From Escherichia phage vB-Eco-KMB43: a stretch of 64,000 nucleotides of DNA. Made by a program: the position numbers and the translations under genes. The stretch is from the sequence record OR525698.1; one strand, given 5' to 3'. Of this stretch, positions 1 to 24,901 are shown in pieces. Below the pieces are notes generated by a model. The model saw nothing but the letters and a program-made list of their open reading frames with translations, ran no database searches and had not been told where the DNA came from. Each line of letters begins with the position of its first letter. Positions within the stretch are counted from its first letter, which is position 1.

Positions 1-308
1 TAGAAATGCTGCGGTTCGGTGATATTTACGATTAATTCAGCTTCTTCCATGAGGAAAACTTCAGATTCTACTGATTCCGTCGTATCGGTATCTTGTACCG
101 TTACTTTATAGCTACCCGCATTTTCACTTGTTGCACCTACTACAGATAGCGTAGCTGTGCTATTTTCATGTGGTTGGTCGTCTTTTGTCCATGTATATGT
201 CAAATTGCTGGGTAATGGTTCGTCACCCGCTACAGTCGCCGTTAAGGTGAAACCATCTCCAGCAAGAAAACATCTTTTGTCAGATTTAATTGATACTGTG
301 AAAGTCAT
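1..308 (-). CDS. hoc: Hoc-like head outer capsid protein, N-terminal part only (gene continues beyond window start)
   Basis: Minus-strand ORF starting ATG at 308 (MTFTVSIKSD...), Ig-like domain pattern (Y.W...SY.V), position next to inh/uvsW as in T4. Confidence 0.5.
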   Translation of the reverse strand, partial: MTFTVSIKSDKRCFLAGDGFTLTATVAGDEPLPSNLTYTWTKDDQPHENSTATLSVVGATSENAGSYKVTVQDTDTTESVESEVFLMEEAELIVNITEPQHF

Positions 309-17075: not shown

Positions 17076-17114
17076 TGTTTGATTCTCCTAAGTGGTATCT
17101 AGTCTTGATGGTTG

Positions 17115-17144
17115 TATTGTAGGGGAGTTATCCTCCCCTGTCAA
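17115..17144 (-). promoter_or_regulatory. PeSL early promoter (stem GGGGAGG/CCTCCCC)
   Basis: TTGACA with GC palindrome; drives operon 17075 to 15023. Confidence 0.5.
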
Positions 17145-17158
17145 CACTTTTTATAAAA

Positions 17159-17326
17159 TTATTTGTTAATTTCCGGTGCGTTGCTAGGATAGTAACCTTC
17201 TTTAACTCCGAGGTATTTCGCAACCATCCCTACAATCTTCTGTGCTACTACAATGTCAAATTTCAGATAATCTTCGCCGTGGGTTTCAATGATATATGCT
17301 TCACATGCTGCTTTAGTCTCGAACAT
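17159..17326 (-). CDS. hypothetical small protein (55 aa), paralog of 20780-20947
   Basis: MFETKAACEAY...NAPEINK; near-identical copy elsewhere; PeSL upstream. Confidence 0.45.
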   Translation of the reverse strand: MFETKAACEAYIIETHGEDYLKFDIVVAQKIVGMVAKYLGVKEGYYPSNAPEINK

Positions 17327-17359
17327 TTTGATTCTCCTATTTCGTTTCGGTATGTGTGT

Positions 17360-17388
17360 ATTATAGGGGATCTCCCGATCCCCGTCAA
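17360..17388 (-). promoter_or_regulatory. PeSL early promoter (TTGACG-GGGATCGGGAGATCCCC-TATAAT)
   Basis: Consensus hexamers with stem-loop spacer. Confidence 0.6.
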
Positions 17389-17404
17389 CAACTTTTTTTT
17401 AAAA

Positions 17405-17686
17405 TTATTCGTGATTAGTTTCGATGTTGTGCATTTTGCACCAGTTCAGCCAATCACCCAGATCCTGATAGTTAATGCTTTTATCTGCTGCCATCGTTTT
17501 TGTCTTGATACCCATATGTGCGTTATGAGTAAGCATTTTTACAGTGAACTCAATTTTATCACCTTTAGCTTTAACATCAACCAGTTTGGTCCACTGGCTA
17601 CCAGCGCCGCGAATGTTCATACCAACGATGTTTCCGATGTATGCTTCTTTGTTTTTCAGGATTTCGGTTGCTTTGATGAATTTCAT
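17405..17686 (-). CDS. hypothetical protein (93 aa)
   Basis: ORF after PeSL promoter with GGAGAATCAA leader. Confidence 0.5.
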   Translation of the reverse strand: MKFIKATEILKNKEAYIGNIVGMNIRGAGSQWTKLVDVKAKGDKIEFTVKMLTHNAHMGIKTKTMAADKSINYQDLGDWLNWCKMHNIETNHE

Positions 17687-17719
17687 TTTTGATTCTCCAG
17701 TTCGTTTCGGTATGTGTGT

Positions 17720-17748
17720 ATTATGCTATTTTCTTACTTTGGTGTCAA
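17720..17748 (-). promoter_or_regulatory. early promoter (TTGACA-17-CATAAT), PeSL-related without clear stem
   Basis: Hexamers at correct spacing plus shared CACACATACCGAAACGAA leader. Confidence 0.5.
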
Positions 17749-17757
17749 CAACTTTTT

Positions 17758-18027
17758 TTAGATATTTTCAGAAATAAATTTTAAAACTTGACGTAAATGT
17801 TTCTCATCTTTGATAGTCGCCGGAAGTTCTTCTTTTACTTCCTGTGCAAGATAGATATTTCCGTTCCAAGTGAAAGATCCGTCTTCGTTTACGCGATAGC
17901 TGAACATCCACTCGCAATCATTTTCGATTTCATATACACACAGAAGAGTGTAATCTTCAAAGCTATTGATTTCAAGGTCGAAGCCGTGACGTTTTGCAAA
18001 GTTGGTAGTGGTTTTAGTCAGTGCCAT
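17758..18027 (-). CDS. hypothetical protein (89 aa)
   Basis: ORF after PeSL promoter. Confidence 0.5.
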   Translation of the reverse strand: MALTKTTTNFAKRHGFDLEINSFEDYTLLCVYEIENDCEWMFSYRVNEDGSFTWNGNIYLAQEVKEELPATIKDEKHLRQVLKFISENI

Positions 18028-18068
18028 TGTTTGATTCTCCTAAGTGGTATCTCGTCTTGATGGGTGTA

Positions 18069-18096
18069 TTATGCTATAGGCGTGATCTGGTGTCAA
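18069..18096 (-). promoter_or_regulatory. early promoter (TTGACA ... CATAAT)
   Basis: Hexamers upstream of 17758-18027 ORF. Confidence 0.5.
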
Positions 18097-18344
18097 TGCT
18101 TTTTTTAATTTTATGCAATAAAAAGACGACACTAAGGTCGGCACATTTTAAAAATTCTTGCCATATATGCAAGCCTCATAATCTAGAGGATGACCGCCAA
18201 TCCTACCCGGCTTAATATTCCAACCGCATCGATATTTGCTGACCATGCTAACAGTTTCGGTTCTTAGAGCATTTTCTTTGCAAATCATACCCCATAAATT
18301 CTTTTCTATAAGGACAGTCCGCTTTGCAAGTTGGCGGTTCTACG

Positions 18345-18536: not shown

Positions 18537-18568
18537 CTTTATTTCCTCAATCTCGTTTCGATGGGTGT

Positions 18569-18598
18569 ATTATGCTATAGGCTAGACCAGGTTGTCAA
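18569..18598 (-). promoter_or_regulatory. early promoter (TTGACA ... CATAAT)
   Basis: Hexamers upstream of 18345-18536 ORF. Confidence 0.5.
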
Positions 18599-18621: not shown

Positions 18622-18647
18622 TAAAAAAGCCGACGCTAAGGTCGGCT
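18622..18647 (-). terminator. terminator
   Basis: Hairpin AGCCGAC-GCTAAG-GTCGGCT with A-run. Confidence 0.55.
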
Positions 18648-18654
18648 AATAAAA

Positions 18655-18963
18655 TCATTTAGACAAATAATCATTCTGTGCAATCCGGTCGGCGTATGCT
18701 GGTGTTACGTCAATCGCCAACACTTTAACGCGTGCTTTCTTGCGACCTGGGTTTTCTCGTAACCAGTGCTCATGACCGTGCACATTTTTATATTTTGATG
18801 CGGTTTCGAAGGTACGGATCGGACCTGGATAATCTGCGTAAAGGATCTCTAGGTCTTCGGTGATGTAAAAATATACATCATAATTACTGTTCTCTAGTTT
18901 AAGCAGAGAATTGCGAAATTGTGGTAAATTCTCGCGGGTAAATTCAACTACAAGATTTTTCAT
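18655..18963 (-). CDS. HxHW-motif small protein family member
   Basis: Shares H.HW and LAIDVTP motifs with five paralogs; start at ATG 18963 with GAGGA RBS. Confidence 0.5.
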   Translation of the reverse strand: MKNLVVEFTRENLPQFRNSLLKLENSNYDVYFYITEDLEILYADYPGPIRTFETASKYKNVHGHEHWLRENPGRKKARVKVLAIDVTPAYADRIAQNDYLSK

Positions 18964-18988
18964 AGTGATATCCTCATTCAGATAGATT

Positions 18989-19007
18989 AAAAGGGGCTTA
19001 ACGCCCC
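18989..19007 (-). terminator. terminator (GGGGC-TTAAC-GCCCC hairpin family)
   Basis: Same hairpin as the 14461 copy. Confidence 0.55.
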
Positions 19008-19012
19008 GTATA

Positions 19013-19300
19013 TTAAAACAGTCCTTCCTGTACACCGTAGTAGAGTTCGTCACTGATAATTTCATTAATGCGACGGTGTGCATATTCCTGATTTGCGAAG
19101 TTGTCAGCAAGTTCTACTTTAGTTTCGCCGTCATGAGTCCATTTAGTGATAACTTTACCATCTGCAAATTTGAAGTTGAACTCTTTAGCTACTGCATCGC
19201 GTACCAGACGTGCGAACTTGTTGTTACGGATTGCATTATCGGTTTCGTGTGCAGCGTGAGCAAATTTGTTAACTTTCAGAGTGATAGTAATGTATGCCAT
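19013..19300 (-). CDS. hypothetical protein (95 aa), AKEFN-motif pair with 22182-22493
   Basis: ORF after PeSL; shared motif RDAVAKEFNFK. Confidence 0.5.
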   Translation of the reverse strand: MAYITITLKVNKFAHAAHETDNAIRNNKFARLVRDAVAKEFNFKFADGKVITKWTHDGETKVELADNFANQEYAHRRINEIISDELYYGVQEGLF

Positions 19301-19346
19301 AATTTGATTCTCCTAGTTAGAAAGTGTATCTCGTTTCGATGGGTGT

Positions 19347-19375
19347 ATTATGCTATACACCCGATCCATTGTCAA
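19347..19375 (-). promoter_or_regulatory. early promoter (TTGACA-17-CATAAT)
   Basis: Hexamers upstream of 19013-19300 ORF. Confidence 0.5.
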
Positions 19376-19707
19376 CGCCTTTTTATAAAATAATTTTCGA
19401 TATCTTTATGATGTTTTTCTCGTGCTTGGTCTGCCTCGGCTGGCGATACGTTGGAAGCGATAATCTTCACTACTGTTGCACCTTTTTCGGTGTCCGACAC
19501 CCAATGATTATGGAAACCGCTATTATTAAACACTTGATAAGAAAATGATTTAATGCTAGGGAAATTATATGTGTAATAGCGTACCTTTAATTCTGAATCT
19601 ATGTATAGATAGATCACCGCACCTAGATAGACCGTCTCACTCGTTCCATCAACTAACAGTAGAGTATTTCGCAATTCTTCTAAATTGTCTTTTGTAAGAA
19701 AAATCAT
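19372..19707 (-). CDS. HxHW-motif small protein family member
   Basis: FHNHW ... IIASNVSPAEADQAREKHH. Confidence 0.5.
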   Translation of the reverse strand: MIFLTKDNLEELRNTLLLVDGTSETVYLGAVIYLYIDSELKVRYYTYNFPSIKSFSYQVFNNSGFHNHWVSDTEKGATVVKIIASNVSPAEADQAREKHHKDIENYFIKRR

Positions 19708-19721
19708 AGTATAATCCTCAA

Positions 19722-20045
19722 TTAAACCAAATTAACTTTGGTGTTGTGGTGTTTTTCTCGTGCTTCGTCCGCTTCTTCCGGTGTCACGTTACGAGCGACT
19801 ACAATAACACTTGCTGCCTCTCCGTGATGAGAGATCTCTACCCAATGGTTATGATTTGTGAATCCGTGTTTTATTGCGTAAGCGAACGGCTTGGACGTCC
19901 AGTAGTTACTATAATATCGTACATTTAGATCGCTATCAATGTACAAATATGTGCTGTCGTTTACATTGCCACTAACAACAAAAACAAGACAATTGCGAAG
20001 ATCTGGCAATATTTTGTCTGTCAATTTTATAATGTGACTGTTCAT
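19722..20045 (-). CDS. HxHW-motif small protein family member
   Basis: NHNHW ... VVARNVTPEEADEAREKHH; ATG at 20045. Confidence 0.5.
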   Translation of the reverse strand: MNSHIIKLTDKILPDLRNCLVFVVSGNVNDSTYLYIDSDLNVRYYSNYWTSKPFAYAIKHGFTNHNHWVEISHHGEAASVIVVARNVTPEEADEAREKHHNTKVNLV

Positions 20046-20047
20046 AA

Positions 20048-20257
20048 TTAACACCACTCAAGAGTTTTTGAAAACACATCTATCCATTGTTGAGTATATG
20101 CAGTTTCTTTCCACGAGACAATACCAGTAGAATAATGATTCTTGTTTCCAGAAAAGGACGGGCATTTTGATGCATCTTCCATCATCTTTTCGGCGAACTC
20201 TGGTTCGTATACTCGCAAGATCTGTTGATATGCTTTGTAGTCTTTAAATTTGCTCAT
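20048..20257 (-). CDS. hypothetical protein (69 aa)
   Basis: ORF in overlapping operon. Confidence 0.45.
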   Translation of the reverse strand: MSKFKDYKAYQQILRVYEPEFAEKMMEDASKCPSFSGNKNHYSTGIVSWKETAYTQQWIDVFSKTLEWC

Positions 20258-20522
20258 AATCGTTAACTACCTTATCAGCTTCTTTTATTGTTTTTACATC
20301 AACTGCGATAACCCGTAAAGGTTCGTCGTGGTTCCACCAATGATCGTGAATATCAGCTTGTGATTTATCACCAAAGGAATCACGAATATCATTTTTACAT
20401 TTATAGCTAATGTGACCGTCATAGTCAACATAAAGGTAATTATCGAAAATCGGCGTTTTTAAGATCATGCCGAAAAATCTTTCTTTGTGTGTCTTATCCA
20501 GTGTTGCAGTAATTCGCATCAT
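20244..20522 (-). CDS. HxHW-motif small protein family member
   Basis: HDHWW ... IAVDVKTIKEADK. Confidence 0.5.
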   Translation of the reverse strand: MMRITATLDKTHKERFFGMILKTPIFDNYLYVDYDGHISYKCKNDIRDSFGDKSQADIHDHWWNHDEPLRVIAVDVKTIKEADKVVNDYEQI

Positions 20523-20534
20523 AATATATTCCTC

Positions 20535-20714
20535 TTAGAAAGGGATGGTCATTTCTTGAGCTTGTACATTCTCGTTAGGATTAAACTTCATCCAACCGAT
20601 ATTGTCTACCAGCATATGCACATTTTTATCATATCCTACGTGAGTAGTCAATACTAAATGTGCTTTACCTTCAACGATGATTTCCATGTACTTCTGAACT
20701 TCGATAGCTTTCAT
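20535..20714 (-). CDS. hypothetical small protein (59 aa)
   Basis: ATG 20714 behind PeSL and GGAGAATCAA leader. Confidence 0.4.
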   Translation of the reverse strand: MKAIEVQKYMEIIVEGKAHLVLTTHVGYDKNVHMLVDNIGWMKFNPNENVQAQEMTIPF

Positions 20715-20747
20715 TTTTGATTCTCCGTTTGTTGTCTTGATGGGAGT

Positions 20748-20776
20748 ATATTACTACTCCCTTTAATCATTGTCAA
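20748..20776 (-). promoter_or_regulatory. PeSL early promoter (stem GGGAGTA/TACTCCC)
   Basis: TTGACA plus palindrome GGGAGTATATTACTACTCCC. Confidence 0.5.
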
Positions 20777-20779
20777 CTA

Positions 20780-20947
20780 TTATTTGTTAATTTCCGGTGC
20801 GTTGCTCGGATAGTAACCTTCTTTAACACCCAGATATTTTGCGACCATTCCGGTGATCTTCTGTGCTACTACAATGTCAAATTTCAGGTAGTCTTCACCG
20901 TGGTTTGCTACAATGTATGCTTCGCATTCTGCTTTAGTCTGGAACAT
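20780..20947 (-). CDS. hypothetical small protein (55 aa), paralog of 17159-17326
   Basis: MFQTKAECEAY...NAPEINK; PeSL upstream. Confidence 0.45.
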   Translation of the reverse strand: MFQTKAECEAYIVANHGEDYLKFDIVVAQKITGMVAKYLGVKEGYYPSNAPEINK

Positions 20948-20981
20948 TTTTGATTCTCCTATATCTCGTTGGTATGTGTGT

Positions 20982-21010
20982 AGTATAGGGGATCACCGAT
21001 CCCCTGTCAA
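20982..21010 (-). promoter_or_regulatory. PeSL early promoter (TTGACA-GGGGATCGGTGATCCCC-TATACT)
   Basis: Same stem-loop spacer as the 14982 copy. Confidence 0.6.
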
Positions 21011-21017
21011 CAACTTT

Positions 21018-21326
21018 TTATTCTTCATCTTCATCTTTATCTTGATATGCGTACGTCATAAATTTGTCTGCTACTTTGTCCGCGTTTTCAGGTTCTACGT
21101 CTGACGCTAGGACAACAGCTAGTTCTGTTTTGTCGTTTCCATCATACCAATGATTATGAGTGTCGTTTTCTTCGATATAAAACGAATCATTTGGAGTTGT
21201 GCGACAATATACGTCTAAATTCCCATCGATATAAAAGATCCAATCCGAATACAAAATGATTGTTTTAGCAAGATTTTTATTGCCTTCAACGAAAGGTTCG
21301 GCTACAAACAAATTAGTATGTTCCAT
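21018..21326 (-). CDS. HxHW-motif small protein family member
   Basis: THNHW ... VVLASDVEPENADK; start ATG 21326 with GAGGAAAAA RBS. Confidence 0.5.
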   Translation of the reverse strand: MEHTNLFVAEPFVEGNKNLAKTIILYSDWIFYIDGNLDVYCRTTPNDSFYIEENDTHNHWYDGNDKTELAVVLASDVEPENADKVADKFMTYAYQDKDEDEE

Positions 21327-21343
21327 AGTATTTTTCCTCAAAA

Positions 21344-21535
21344 TTATACAGCTTCGTAAACTTCCCAATGTCCAACACCAGCACGCTTAACGAAAAGGTT
21401 TTCTTTTATGTTATTCATAAACGTCTGGATGGATTTAATTCGTTTGGAAGGTTTCCAGTCTTCGTTGGTATTGCGTCGATACATCATAACATTACCAGAC
21501 CGCTTATATTCAGCAACCATTTTAAGACCACACAT
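21344..21535 (-). CDS. hypothetical protein (63 aa)
   Basis: ORF track; promoter-like motif upstream. Confidence 0.4.
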   Translation of the reverse strand: MCGLKMVAEYKRSGNVMMYRRNTNEDWKPSKRIKSIQTFMNNIKENLFVKRAGVGHWEVYEAV

Positions 21536-21580
21536 AATATTATCCTCAATTTGTGGGAGAGTATTACCCTCCCGATTATT

Positions 21581-21612
21581 GTTATACTACATTACGCAAA
21601 ATGGCGTGTCAA
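21581..21612 (-). promoter_or_regulatory. early promoter-like element with nearby GC palindrome
   Basis: TTGACA present; -10 weak; palindrome GGGAG...CTCCC displaced. Confidence 0.3.
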
Positions 21613-21912
21613 TGCTTCTTTTGCTGTTCCGCTAAGATTCTCTATCTCTCCTGGCATAACATCAACCGCCAGAACTTCTACAACATCCTCTGATCCTAAC
21701 CAGTGAGTATGACCTTTGTAGAACTTGATAATCAGACTACCTTCCTCATCCCATTTAACGCTATCGCTAGCCCACCACACATCACCGTCGATAAAGTTGA
21801 TGTAAAGCACACTACGCCACATTGAATTAATTACTTTCAATACTGCGCCTTTCATATCTTCCACGGTGTGGTCTTCCATTTTGAAGACCTCGCCTACCTG
21901 AACTTTTGCCAT
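21592..21912 (-). CDS. HxHW-motif small protein family member
   Basis: GHTHW ... LAVDVMPGE; RBS GAGAGGTGA. Confidence 0.5.
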   Translation of the reverse strand: MAKVQVGEVFKMEDHTVEDMKGAVLKVINSMWRSVLYINFIDGDVWWASDSVKWDEEGSLIIKFYKGHTHWLGSEDVVEVLAVDVMPGEIENLSGTAKEALTRHFA

Positions 21913-22109: not shown

Positions 22110-22143
22110 AATTGATTCTCCTAGTTCGTTTCGGTATGTGTGT

Positions 22144-22173
22144 ATTATAGGGGAGTTTAACCTCCCCTGTCAA
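22144..22173 (-). promoter_or_regulatory. PeSL early promoter (TTGACA-GGGGAGGTTAAACTCCCC-TATAAT)
   Basis: Consensus hexamers with stem-loop spacer. Confidence 0.6.
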
Positions 22174-22181
22174 CAACTTTT

Positions 22182-22493
22182 TTAAAGTTTTTCCATGATA
22201 ACGGTCATAATTACATCTTCTGCGCGAGCGGTCAGATTATCAGCGTCAGCATGTGGGCGGTTGGTTGTTACAGAGATAACACCGTTGCGCACTGGTTTGA
22301 TATTGATATCAAGATGATCCGCGAAACGTTCGCCAGTTACAGAATGAATTTTGGTGTTAAATTCTTTTGCCAGTGCCTTGCGAACTTCACGAATCAGGAT
22401 AGCGTTTTTCAGTTGGTTCTCCGCGCTCATGGTCTTCTGAGTGTTCATGGTTCCGTCGAAGTCAATCATTGGCAGCGTTACGATGTATTTCAT
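22182..22493 (-). CDS. hypothetical protein (103 aa), AKEFN-motif pair with 19013-19300
   Basis: Shared motif REVRKALAKEFNTK; PeSL upstream. Confidence 0.5.
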   Translation of the reverse strand: MKYIVTLPMIDFDGTMNTQKTMSAENQLKNAILIREVRKALAKEFNTKIHSVTGERFADHLDINIKPVRNGVISVTTNRPHADADNLTARAEDVIMTVIMEKL

Positions 22494-22537
22494 TTTTGAT
22501 TCTCCGTTTAAGAAAGTGTGTTTCGTTTTGATGTGTG

Positions 22538-22567
22538 TAGTATAGGGGATACGTGATCCCCTGTCAA
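22538..22567 (-). promoter_or_regulatory. PeSL early promoter (TTGACA-GGGGATCACGTATCCCC-TATACT)
   Basis: Consensus -35 with stem-loop spacer. Confidence 0.6.
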
Positions 22568-22580
22568 CAACTTTTTTGAA

Positions 22581-22925
22581 TTATTTTTTCATGAGCTTAA
22601 TGGCTTCTTCCATAGCCAGCACATTTCGATAGTTAGGGTATCGTGTTAGATCGTCATACATTCGCTTAAGGGTGGAAACTTCCTCAAACTCTGGGTTTTC
22701 TAGATACAGTTGAACAAATTGTTTCTCTACCATCTCGGCTTTTAGCTTGTCTGCTTGTTCCTGTTCATATGATTTCGTTGGACCCAACACCAACAAAATG
22801 ATAAAGGTGATCAACGGGCTAATGATCAATGATAGGATAACATAACCAATAACGCTACGGTTTAAACGGCTTGCGTACATGCCTACAAGGAAAACAAAAA
22901 GGATATAGATAAACAGAAAGAACAT
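22581..22925 (-). CDS. small membrane protein (two predicted TM segments)
   Basis: Hydrophobic N-terminal half FFLFIYILFVFLVGMY... IISPLITFIILLVLG. Confidence 0.5.
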   Translation of the reverse strand: MFFLFIYILFVFLVGMYASRLNRSVIGYVILSLIISPLITFIILLVLGPTKSYEQEQADKLKAEMVEKQFVQLYLENPEFEEVSTLKRMYDDLTRYPNYRNVLAMEEAIKLMKK

Positions 22926-22932
22926 ATAATGG

Positions 22933-23406
22933 TTACTCCTTATTTTCGCGCTCGTACTTTTCGAAATAAAATTCTACTGGCTGGTCGTGGATTGACAGCA
23001 AGCCAAAGCGTTTAGCCGCTCGCAATCCCATATTGCGCTGAATGTACTTCTGGAAGTTCTCGCGTATACACTTACGCCAGGATTCTAAGCCCATGCAGCT
23101 TTTATAAAGATTGCATTGCACACATGCCGGATTCATGTTATCAAGTATATCATGCTCCGGTTTATGCATTCCTACAACCTTATACTTCCACGATCCATCA
23201 TCATTACGGACAATTCGTCCATTTTCATCATAGACTACCTTTGAGCGTCGCAATACTGGTTTGATGTGGTCTGCGTGCCAGCGATCCCCTAGTTCCTCGC
23301 CACAATAGGCACAACGTCCACCATATTTCATTTTCAGGATCTGGCGTTGCTCTTTCTTTGACAATTTTTTAGGTTTAGGGGCTTTCGCCCCTTCATTATC
23401 ACACAT
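22933..23406 (-). CDS. HNH endonuclease (free-standing, homing-endonuclease-like)
   Basis: CAYCGE...WHADHIKP...N...CVQCNLYK pattern typical of the HNH motif. Confidence 0.7.
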   Translation of the reverse strand: MCDNEGAKAPKPKKLSKKEQRQILKMKYGGRCAYCGEELGDRWHADHIKPVLRRSKVVYDENGRIVRNDDGSWKYKVVGMHKPEHDILDNMNPACVQCNLYKSCMGLESWRKCIRENFQKYIQRNMGLRAAKRFGLLSIHDQPVEFYFEKYERENKE

Positions 23407-24901
23407 CGAATACCTCTTTTACTGTATTTGCAGTGGTCTTGTCGTAGCGAATACGTTTGATGATTGGGAGAAATAAAGAGAACTCCGGTTCATCTTCTTT
23501 ACGTGATTTGCTGCGAATGTACCCGTTGCATGTCATCTCAATGACTTTTCCAATCAGGTTATGACGGTCAGCCCATAACATTTCTCGGTCGAGTTCATTT
23601 CGACGATCGAACGGAATTACACGTTCAGTACCATCATCACCTTTTTCGGTTGTAGTGTCGGTTAATCCCGATCCGGTGTTAGTCATCATTCGTCCGCACG
23701 CACTACGGACAGTAAAACCGCCTACCTTATTGGGGTCTTTACTATGCGGATATACATCAACAATTTCCGCGTCGAAGTCAATCACTTCTTTAAATTTAAC
23801 CTGATCTTTACTACGGCGATCTTCAAATACACCATGTAAATTTTTAAGGATAATACCTTCTAAGCCCATGTTGACATAACGATGATATACTTCGCGAGCT
23901 TCATCGATATTGTTAACTACAGTGTTTTCTATGATCTGAACACGAGGATCGTTAAGTTCTTCAACAATCTGTTTTAGTTCTTCGAATCGATCTTTATATT
24001 GCTTCGTTGCTTTCTCGTTTCCGTAATACACATCACGGTCGATAACATCCCAGACAGTGTAAACAATACATTGGGCTTCTTCTTTTGGAATAGTTCCTTT
24101 AAGTGATTTGTTGAGGATACCATTTCCGGTCTGACGATCTGCAACAACGGATTCTTTCACTGCTTCCGCTACTGGCGTTAATGGCATTTCCTCTTCTTCA
24201 AATATCCATGACAGAGTACCATCATAAACGCTTTCAACGAAGTTCTGCGCTGGTGTTTGCGAAAGGGTAGGCATATATACCAATTCGCCATCTAGAACAA
24301 TTCCACGGCCTCGTAGACGCTCTAAAACCGCAAACAAATCATCAAGCCCTTGATAGGTATTACCTGAGCGGGTATAGATTGCTAATGTTTCCCCGTCAAT
24401 ATCAGCCATACCACGAGCGCCATCGCTTTTAAGTTGTGCATACGCCGGATACTTGATATTAGCAATAGTCTTATCAGAACATGACGATGCAAGGTGGCAC
24501 GGTTGCTGGGGGATCAGTTTCTTCCATACCTTGTTTGCAGTGGTAGCGGAACAGCCGCATTCCAGATCACGATTCAGGACCATCATTGCAACTTTAGCAT
24601 CATCCTCTGACAAGCAAGTCAGAGTATCGGTAACTAGCTGTAATGCTGCATTACCAGTTACTTGACGCGTGGCAAGTTTATTTTTAAAGACCTGTAATGC
24701 ACCGGATAAAGACAATACAGACGAATAGCGAGACGGTTTATCGTATTTCTTTACGCCAAACGTAACCTGTTTGCAATATGCCAGATAAAAGCATTCTTTC
24801 AGCGTTTCATTGCTCGCGGATTCTTTCAGAATCTTTTCTTTCAGCGATGTTTTGTCTGTTGCTGCAAGCTGATTAATGATATTAAGAATTGACATTTTCA
24901 C
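23399..24901 (-). CDS. 30: ATP-dependent DNA ligase gp30
   Basis: 500 aa, adenylation motif KSDGARG, T4 ligase-like length and position. Confidence 0.9.
   Translation of the reverse strand: MKMSILNIINQLAATDKTSLKEKILKESASNETLKECFYLAYCKQVTFGVKKYDKPSRYSSVLSLSGALQVFKNKLATRQVTGNAALQLVTDTLTCLSEDDAKVAMMVLNRDLECGCSATTANKVWKKLIPQQPCHLASSCSDKTIANIKYPAYAQLKSDGARGMADIDGETLAIYTRSGNTYQGLDDLFAVLERLRGRGIVLDGELVYMPTLSQTPAQNFVESVYDGTLSWIFEEEEMPLTPVAEAVKESVVADRQTGNGILNKSLKGTIPKEEAQCIVYTVWDVIDRDVYYGNEKATKQYKDRFEELKQIVEELNDPRVQIIENTVVNNIDEAREVYHRYVNMGLEGIILKNLHGVFEDRRSKDQVKFKEVIDFDAEIVDVYPHSKDPNKVGGFTVRSACGRMMTNTGSGLTDTTTEKGDDGTERVIPFDRRNELDREMLWADRHNLIGKVIEMTCNGYIRSKSRKEDEPEFSLFLPIIKRIRYDKTTANTVKEVFDV

Follow-up and report, generated by a model that had tools for sequence, protein, structure and literature searches.

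T4-type phages hold many small early 'ORFan' genes in reserve, and the few that have been worked out (Dmd, Arn, IPI*, Acb2, Tad-like sponges and others) encode host-takeover or anti-immunity factors; likewise, most of the characterized small early proteins from the hyperplastic regions (HPRs) of these phages bind or inhibit proteins of the host or of defence. In the multigene families of large DNA viruses and in bacterial poly-immunity arrays, which consist of small inhibitors encoded by tandem paralogues, the copy number is usually strain-variable, recent duplicates included. Here we are concerned with six small genes between positions 18,655 and 21,912 of a 64,000-nucleotide stretch of Escherichia phage vB-Eco-KMB43 (sequence record OR525698.1), to which we refer as the window. 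An earlier inspection of its letters alone (the original prediction) had described these genes as a lineage-specific expansion of paralogues sharing the motif H-x-H-W.

The region that contains them is HPR3 of Arbiol et al. 2010 (RB49 open reading frames (ORFs) 197-208; PMC2839356), which is dense in early promoter/stem-loop elements (PeSLs), where a sigma-70 consensus early promoter is combined with a G(n)-loop-C(n) stem-loop that also terminates upstream transcription. Both the promoter and the terminator activity of the RB49 PeSLs in this region have been shown experimentally, including the terminator of PeSL211/210, and a lacZ fusion of PeSL206/205 reached ~13,000 Miller units (PMC2839356). 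Arbiol et al. 2010 and Comeau et al. 2014 agree that small early T4-type proteins mostly act by binding or inhibiting host or defence proteins, and treat the ORFs as unrelated ORFans, the word 'paralog' occurring zero times (PMC2839356, PMC4122927).

A single family of divergent paralogues

The six ORFs, here named p1 to p6 after the slots that they occupy (Table 1), encode proteins of 92-111 residues (~11-13 kDa) that can be aligned along their whole length and form a single protein family. All six are found on the minus strand at the coordinates originally predicted, and the start codons chosen for them agree with the lengths of the annotated orthologues in phages RB49, JSE and PHB13. The plus-strand ORFs of this segment are shadows of the six, and in five annotated related genomes every annotated gene of the matching stretch is on the same strand as the six. 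When hidden Markov models (HMMs) built from five members were run against all 612 stop-to-stop ORFs of the window, the sixth member was recovered in each case, with E-values of 2e-15 (p1), 1e-19 (p2), 7e-20 (p3), 1e-5 (p4), 4e-11 (p5) and 1.5e-9 (p6), while the top non-member scored 0.008 or worse. The pattern H.HW occurs in exactly six of the 612 ORFs, which are the same six, as compared to 0.56 ± 0.77 ORFs in shuffled sequences. The leave-one-out recovery and the exclusivity of the motif argue that the relationship is not a chance motif match, and on this sequence evidence the six are confirmed as genuine paralogues of one family. No seventh member was recognized by the HMM among the 612 ORFs of the window or among the 1588 ORFs of the whole 164-kb RB49 genome.

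Divergence within the family is considerable: identity to p1 is 22-29%, and over all pairs of paralogues it ranges from 20 to 45%. The invariant positions of the six-way alignment are Y33, H64, H66, W67, A83 and V86 (p1 numbering), so that the motifs originally proposed fare unequally. H-x-H-W is indeed common to all six; the Tyr of Y(L/I).ID is invariant, but the Asp that should follow it is present in only four of the six; A83 and V86 in the V.A.DV.P tail are also invariant, but the Asp between them is Asn in p2 and p3; finally, L..LRN.L at the N-terminus is present in p1-p3 only, and is not a common feature. In wider alignments (23-27 family members) H66 and W67 are the sole invariant residues. 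The first His of H-x-H-W is Ser or missing in some members (it is Ser in the slot-5 proteins of RB49 and JSE), 20 members out of 23 have an Asp or Asn one strand after the motif, and at the two Asp positions some members have Thr or Asn instead. Any interpretation of the motif as a metal site is weakened by the fact that the H-x-H pair is not universal in the family.

By composition the six proteins are soluble (negative grand average of hydropathy, isoelectric point (pI) between 4.1 and 7.9), with charges that range from +1 to -17. There is no conserved Cys in the family, and p1, p2 and p6 have none at all. In the orthologues of p5 and p6 a hypervariable, indel-prone segment directly precedes H-x-H-W.

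The family could not be placed in a named Pfam domain in the original prediction, and we agree: no credible Pfam match was obtained for the six proteins or for 23 members, NCBIfam returned only sub-threshold noise, zero PADLOC families were matched, and a sequence-profile search of the PDB yielded noise only. The sequences themselves are already catalogued, as PHROG entries and as 'hypothetical protein' in more than 50 genomes. Full-length matches to PHROG HMMs place p1, p2 and p3 in phrog_9345 (E = 2e-48, 5e-41 and 7e-42), p4 in phrog_15972 (6e-59), p5 in phrog_15965 (4e-57) and p6 in phrog_16486 (8e-71). PHROGs thus holds as four separate families of 'unknown function' what we find to be one; the cross-matches to phrog_9345 are weak for p4 (E = 3e-3) and p5 (2e-6), and there is none for p6. 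Neither PHROGs nor the searched literature has a record of the unification into one family, of a fixed six-slot array, or of the invariant His-Trp; the same literature does not mention these PHROGs, RB49p200 or NP_891771, does not link Krischvirus with 'anti-defense', and does not describe paralogy in the region. A single family of ancient copies in a fixed array of six slots, with a fold that has no detectable relative, appears to be undescribed in the literature searched.

Conservation and age of the array

With ~94% identity to the Escherichia phages JSE and RB49 (Straboviridae, genus Krischvirus), the window is from a Krischvirus, and the RB49-like source that had been guessed for it is correct. 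Besides the window, we scanned with the family HMM the loci of RB49, JSE, PHB13, E26, G2494 and G2248, and an 11-kb metagenomic contig: six members are present, in identical positions and order, in all seven. In the deposited records the slots are retained across 54-56 genomes with matches, and no family member was seen outside Krischvirus records among the deposited phages searched. Within this stable frame two haplotypes exist for slots 2 and 3. One of them, with p2 and p3, is that of the window and of JSE, while 54 of 56 matching deposited records carry in slot 2 a 92-residue type (s2b, with the motif HDHSHW), p2 being found at >95% identity only in JSE (2 of the 56 records); in the other six loci s2b is paired with a 102-106-residue variant (s3b) in slot 3, and an orthologue at least 60% identical to p3 is found among the compared loci only in JSE. 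In JSE the orthologues of p1 (L004 2687-2994, split into EpJSE_00203/00202) and p5 (L004 5047-5341, split into EpJSE_00212/00211) are frameshifted, and are either pseudogenes or the product of sequencing errors.

An extra gene of 88 codons lies just upstream of slot 6 in JSE (EpJSE_00215, L004 5928-6194), G2494 and G2248, but not in the window. In its protein the sequence GNGHL replaces H-x-H-W, and with a score of only 7.5 bits it does not match the family HMM. C4MZ33, an 88-residue JSE protein among the models of BFVD, which we take from its length to be EpJSE_00215, resembles the family fold (Foldseek E = 7e-3, TM-score (template modelling score) ~0.6). EpJSE_00215 may represent a degenerate eighth lineage.

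The ratio of non-synonymous to synonymous substitution rates (dN/dS) is between 0.07 and 0.27 for five of the six genes of the window and for both alternative slot types, with dS values up to 0.63; the corresponding ratio for the ligase is 0.02. These values indicate sustained purifying selection on the proteins and faster evolution than in core genes. The higher ratio of p3 (0.77) is uninformative, since it was computed on just one pair of sequences, between which there are few substitutions.

When 1.84 billion protein cluster representatives were searched exhaustively with a HMMER profile, 21 matches were obtained; a second, word-indexed search, for which the distant members were taken into the profile, brought no new ones. 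One long protein (P0092, 1034 residues, 7 matched stretches, E = 6e-7) was judged a spurious hit, its score being summed over repeats of the type KGCLRLTYKKG..HTWKD; this protein also carries a recurring sequence, DLSCDFHN.LCGWTFD, which by eye resembles the eukaryotic MAM domain. Distant metagenomic relatives were found for p6 (50-52% identity), p5 (35-61%; P0082, P0087, P0089, P0093, P0094 and P0096), p4 (37-55%; P0074 and P0091 among the distant ones), the p1/2/3 type (33-53%) and s2b (~30%), the p5-type being the most widespread subfamily. Synteny with the window is seen in a 2.1-kb contig (L002), which has homologues of the two 59-residue ORFs as well and encodes in the same order a p6-type protein, a fusion of two family domains, a p4-type and a p3-type protein. 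The fusion (P0085, L002 823-1434) is a natural 203-residue protein made of an s2b-like domain followed by a p5-like one; its single-sequence AlphaFold2 model is uninformative, with a predicted local distance difference test score (pLDDT) of 34 and a predicted TM-score (pTM) of 0.23. In a 20-kb contig from a more distant T4-type phage (L018, ligase 72% identical) the region between the ligase gene and alt holds two members, both of the p5-type. The presence of the p6, p5, p4 and p1/2/3 subfamilies in L002 and L018 indicates that the six-fold state is old, and not the outcome of a recent burst.

The confinement of the family to RB49-like phages, raised as a question in the original prediction, is borne out by the restriction to Krischvirus records among deposited phages and by the mere 21 representatives in the 1.84-billion-protein library. 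As for the lineage-specific expansion, the array is indeed restricted to a Krischvirus-like lineage, but with 20-45% identity and fixed slots it is neither recent nor strain-specific. A recent tandem amplification of the 'accordion' type was considered and rejected, because the copies are only 20-45% identical, there are six in every one of the seven other loci, and the subfamilies predate the genus.

Among the metagenomic sequences we also noticed, in a 1.2-kb contig from run SRR8048112 (L003 318-1100), a 260-residue ORF in which two tandem homologues of the 69-residue ORF that precedes p3 are fused in frame to a p3-type domain: this is either a real fusion, which would hint that the two genes are linked in function, or an indel introduced in the assembly.

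Organization of the locus

The six genes lie between alt, which encodes an RNA polymerase ADP-ribosyltransferase, and gene 30, which encodes DNA ligase. The region has 31 promoter-like sites, versus 21.2 ± 3.6 in shuffled sequences, and on the minus strand several sites with GGGG..CCCC stem-loops match TTGACA-N17/18-TATAAT at 11-12 of 12 positions. A cassette of ~70-75 nucleotides is repeated on the same strand (Table 1): it consists of a Shine-Dalgarno sequence, GGAGAATCAA, followed by the two hexamers TTGACA and TATAAT with a GGGGAT..ATCCCC stem-loop between them, and is of the PeSL type of RB49 and phi1.

The sites listed in Table 1 divide the genes into four units. In the first, the PeSL at 22173 is followed by a 59-residue ORF and by p6, whose Shine-Dalgarno sequence (GAGAGGTGA) is located within a 17-nucleotide gap 5' of the start; in the second, the promoter at 21612 is followed by a 63-residue ORF and p5; the third, from the promoter at 20776, contains a 59-residue ORF, p4, the 69-residue ORF, p3 and p2; the fourth, from the PeSL at 19375, contains a 95-residue ORF, a hairpin with a T-run, p1 and a terminator. 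The claim that each copy has its own promoter does not hold: none of the six is directly behind a promoter, and all are promoter-distal genes of PeSL-driven units, each with its own Shine-Dalgarno sequence. The stem-loop of the PeSL directly 3' of p5 would end the p5 unit, and its promoter would drive a 55-residue ORF. The hairpin between the 95-residue ORF and p1 is probably an attenuator, in which case the expression of p1 would depend on read-through. Both the promoter consensus and the PeSL context suggest that the six genes are expressed early.

Table 1. Coordinates of the six family genes, of regulatory and neighbouring features in the window, and of the secondary structure elements in the model of p1.
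Feature	Position	Strand	Remarks
p1 (slot 1)	18655-18963	-	102 residues; phrog_9345; dN/dS 0.22; between hairpin/T-run 19007-18993 and terminator 18647-18628
p2 (slot 2)	19372-19707	-	111 residues; phrog_9345; 44.6% identical to p3
p3 (slot 3)	19722-20045	-	107 residues; phrog_9345; start 2 nucleotides past the stop of the 69-residue ORF
p4 (slot 4)	20244-20522	-	92 residues; phrog_15972; dN/dS 0.07
p5 (slot 5)	21018-21326	-	102 residues; phrog_15965; pI 4.1; C-terminal DKDEDEE; dN/dS 0.18
p6 (slot 6)	21592-21912	-	106 residues; phrog_16486; pI 4.8; dN/dS 0.19 over 8 orthologues
PeSL early promoter	22144-22173	-	TTGACA-N18-TATAAT, 12/12; GGGGAG...CTCCCC stem-loop between hexamers; heads p6 unit
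Promoter-like site	21584-21612	-	10/12; within 3' end of p6; then GGGAGGG...CTCTCCC stem-loop; heads 63-residue ORF and p5
PeSL	20982-21010	-	directly 3' of p5; counterpart of RB49 PeSL206/205
Promoter-like site	20748-20776	-	10/12; stem-loop overlapping -10; heads p4/p3/p2 unit
PeSL	19347-19375	-	11/12; -35 overlaps p2 stop codon; heads p1 unit
GC-rich hairpin and T-run	18993-19007	-	between 95-residue ORF and p1; equivalent annotated terminator in G2494
Intrinsic-terminator-like hairpin	18628-18647	-	ends p1 unit; annotated terminator in G2494 and G2248
PeSL-cassette copies, first five	17095-17164, 17326-17408, 17686-17760, 18047-18116, 18548-18598	-	
PeSL-cassette copies, remaining four	19326-19395, 20948-21030, 22110-22184, 22518-22587	-	
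69-residue ORF	20048-20257	-	
55-residue ORF, two copies	17159-17326, 20780-20947	-	phrog_8009; both directly behind a PeSL
95-residue ORF	19013-19300	-	phrog_7474; first gene after a PeSL; dN/dS 0.01
103-residue ORF	22182-22493	-	phrog_7474; first gene after a PeSL
HNH endonuclease gene	22933-23406	-	157 residues; directly 3' of gene 30, overlap of 8 nucleotides
Gene 30 (DNA ligase)	23399-24901	-	
p1 model, N-terminal part	residues 5-7, 13-16, 19-23, 29-34, 40-45, 52-56		strand, helix, strand, strand, strand, helix
p1 model, C-terminal part	residues 64-67, 78-84, 88-100		H-x-H-W, strand, helix

The small ORFs that separate the family genes all belong to PHROGs of unknown function. The 55-residue ORF occurs twice, and its two copies are 87% identical over 172 nucleotides; its duplication is much more recent than the six-member family. 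The 95- and 103-residue ORFs form a second paralogous pair, also of unknown function, the former of which is extremely conserved. Near the ligase gene, the HNH endonuclease gene is present in all the compared loci with a dN/dS of 0.03, and thus looks like a domesticated or fixed gene rather than a mobile homing gene. A Krischvirus-like contig (L006 9676-10194) contains an RB49p187-like gene of 172 codons, which has a match to GmrSD_N (PF03235) in its precomputed annotation and adjoins a DNA methyltransferase gene. Modification or restriction of DNA may therefore be the business of other genes between alt and the ligase gene.

Predicted structure and comparison with known folds

The AlphaFold2 model of p1, calculated from a 27-sequence alignment, is a confident one, with a pLDDT of 82.9 and a pTM of 0.79. 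It describes an alpha/beta protein with five strands of at least 3 residues and a C-terminal helix, in which the His-Trp is located between the fourth and fifth strands; the block that contains the motif (residues 61-70) is the least confident of the model, with a mean pLDDT of 68. Independent models, taken from BFVD, of further members of the family from Krischvirus can be superposed on that of p1 with TM-scores of 0.64-0.83. As modelled, the fold matches no solved structure and has no recognizable relative.

Membership in the Tad2/DUF2829 family (PF11195), the anti-Thoeris sponges for glycocyclic ADP-ribose (gcADPR) that include AcrIIA7, was considered and rejected, since both the profile and the signature fail, and only an analogy remains. 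No match to PF11195 was obtained at E<=1 among 23 members, and when the family was compared by hhalign to a DUF2829 alignment of 42 sequences, the match covered only 9 columns with a probability of 0.5% (E = 0.11). The DUF2829 invariants (R22, W25-N26-G27-K28, and W73...S-Q-T-D-x-L-A-x-D-W) have no counterpart in the family except for V-L-A-x-D; the helix is N-terminal in Tad2 and C-terminal in our model, and the Tad2 fold score is not significant.

Other readings of the motif were also discarded. Assignment of H-x-H to a cupin (PF07883) is contradicted by the p5 match to Cupin_2 (E = 0.18), which at 12 bits is below the 27.2-bit cut-off and aligns the motif with the wrong end of the profile, and by the predicted sheet, which is not a barrel. 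A remnant of a papain-like or transglutaminase-like fold is disfavoured by the lack of a conserved Cys and by scores that are not significant. The letters H-N-H-W could also be read as an HNH nuclease, but the HNH motif is a spaced beta-beta-alpha-metal finger rather than a contiguous tripeptide, and this reading was set aside.

Functional interpretation

Our preferred reading, to which we assign a probability of roughly 0.4, is that the six are early accessory proteins directed at the host, acting as counter-defence or host-takeover binders. Since they lie in HPR3, in four short units that begin with PeSLs of the sigma-70 type and in promoter-distal positions of these units, they should be translated within the first few minutes after infection. 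A common docking or ligand-contact element would then be provided by the conserved His-Trp loop, while the diverged surfaces and the hypervariable segment before the motif would confer on each paralogue its own binding specificity, such that the phage would keep a fixed battery of six instead of one gene; the targets would be host or defence components. Because most of the solved small early proteins of T4-type phages are binders or inhibitors, a battery of host-directed binders is judged the likeliest mechanism. Several considerations weigh against it. PADLOC, Pfam, NCBIfam and solved structures offer no functional anchor. A polar/aromatic motif that stays invariant at 20-30% identity is less expected of protein binders in an arms race than of a site for a ligand, a metal or catalysis. 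With dN/dS well below 1 there is no gene-wide positive selection, and the frameshifts of p1 and p5 in JSE, unless due to sequencing error, suggest that under laboratory conditions at least the phage can do without individual members. Finally, early expression is read from a promoter consensus, and p1 is behind a terminator-like hairpin.

The main rival, itself unlikely in our estimate, is that the six are small-molecule or metal 'sponges', in which the H-x-H-W loop and nearby acidic residues would line a pocket that takes up a metal ion or an immune signal derived from nucleotides; the proteins would oligomerize, with ligand specificities that differ among the paralogues. This mode of action is known from Tad1, Tad2 and Acb2. 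An invariant His-Trp in an otherwise divergent family is consistent with such a pocket, ~90-110 residues is a typical size for a phage sponge, and the tandem fusion P0085 suggests domain pairing; moreover, Tad2 also has a five-stranded sheet, with a ligand pocket contributed by the long beta4-alpha3 loop, and there is a local likeness between HAW...DVLAEDW on the Tad2 side and HxHW...VLAxDV in the family. Against these resemblances stand the negligible profile similarity to DUF2829 reported above, the missing R-x-x-W-N-G-K signature, the helix at the opposite end, and the fact that neither the first His nor the two Asp positions are invariant. We regard as very unlikely that the motif belongs to a small enzyme or pseudo-enzyme, with a His-(Asp/Asn) dyad as in the beta-sheet half of a papain- or transglutaminase-like fold, or with a cupin-like metal centre. 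The Asp or Asn found one strand past the motif in most members would fit such a dyad, and there are two faint signals, the Cupin_2 match of p5 and the match of one member to a protein-glutamine gamma-glutamyltransferase model; however, every fold score is below significance, the Cupin_2 alignment has the shortcomings already described, no Cys or other nucleophile is conserved (three of the six proteins have no Cys), the first His is Ser in the slot-5 proteins of RB49 and JSE, and ~95 residues is small for a stand-alone enzyme.

Two further explanations concern the array rather than the motif. If the six paralogues were equivalent subunits of one hetero-oligomeric phage assembly, the stability of the full set and of its order would be explained, as would the fusion of two different subfamily domains in P0085; the close starts within units (that of p3 in particular) point in the same direction, and the conserved loop could be an interface. 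Yet the L018 lineage does with two members of a single subfamily, two members are frameshifted in JSE, the subfamilies that occupy slots 2 and 3 differ between haplotypes, the charges are widely spread, the genes are distributed over four separate units with very different promoter contexts, and the model of the P0085 fusion is poor; on balance an assembly of this kind has little probability. The least probable explanation, which we consider only a slim chance, is that the genes are selfish or near-neutral ORFans that contribute nothing to infection, and travel as passengers with the cassettes that PeSL-mediated shuffling moves. The setting is a PeSL-rich HPR whose genes have been described as non-essential and shuffled, and the JSE frameshifts and haplotype replacements would be expected of such cargo, but sustained purifying selection, the retention of all slots in 54-56 deposited genomes, the persistence of subfamilies at 35-60% identity in more distant phages, and the invariance of His-Trp all speak against it.

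A more ambitious reading is that the array is a hard-wired poly-counter-defence battery built on a small fold not seen before, in which every paralogue would be matched to its own immune pathway of the host, and would hold a ligand or an active-site element from that pathway by means of the His-Trp loop. The ligands could be nucleotide second messengers, NAD (nicotinamide adenine dinucleotide)-derived signals or effector proteins, and some domains might pair as in P0085. We believe the odds to be clearly against this reading, but if it were true, one family would supply several new anti-defence activities and a new sponge or inhibitor fold. In its plainest description the family is another uncharacterized accessory family of the T4-type hyperplastic region. 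It is set apart among phage ORFans by consisting of six genes instead of one, stably retained, mostly under purifying selection, with a conserved His-Trp and a predicted fold without a relative; the His-Trp is a ready handle for mutagenesis, and the family is a well-defined and cheap experimental target. Even if the proteins were not anti-defence factors, four PHROG families would still be joined into one, and a stable island would be documented in a region known for shuffling.

Relation to known systems

The closest described systems are the PeSL ORFan cassettes of RB49 and phi1 (PMC2839356; Comeau et al. 2014, PMC4122927), with which the array shares HPR3 and the promoter/stem-loop cassettes between units. 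As in those cassettes, the products are small, of unknown function and presumed to be adaptive, and the content differs among close relatives, here at slots 2 and 3 and in the extra gene of 88 codons. Unlike the shuffled cassettes, the family keeps the number and the order of its members throughout the deposited genomes that were examined, and no member is directly behind a PeSL. The comparison with the multigene families of large DNA viruses and with poly-immunity arrays is a conceptual one: the six are also clustered, diverged small paralogues in a variable region of a large virus, beside genes of host interaction (alt, the methyltransferase gene), but in contrast to those arrays there are always six copies within the genus, and the copies are old.

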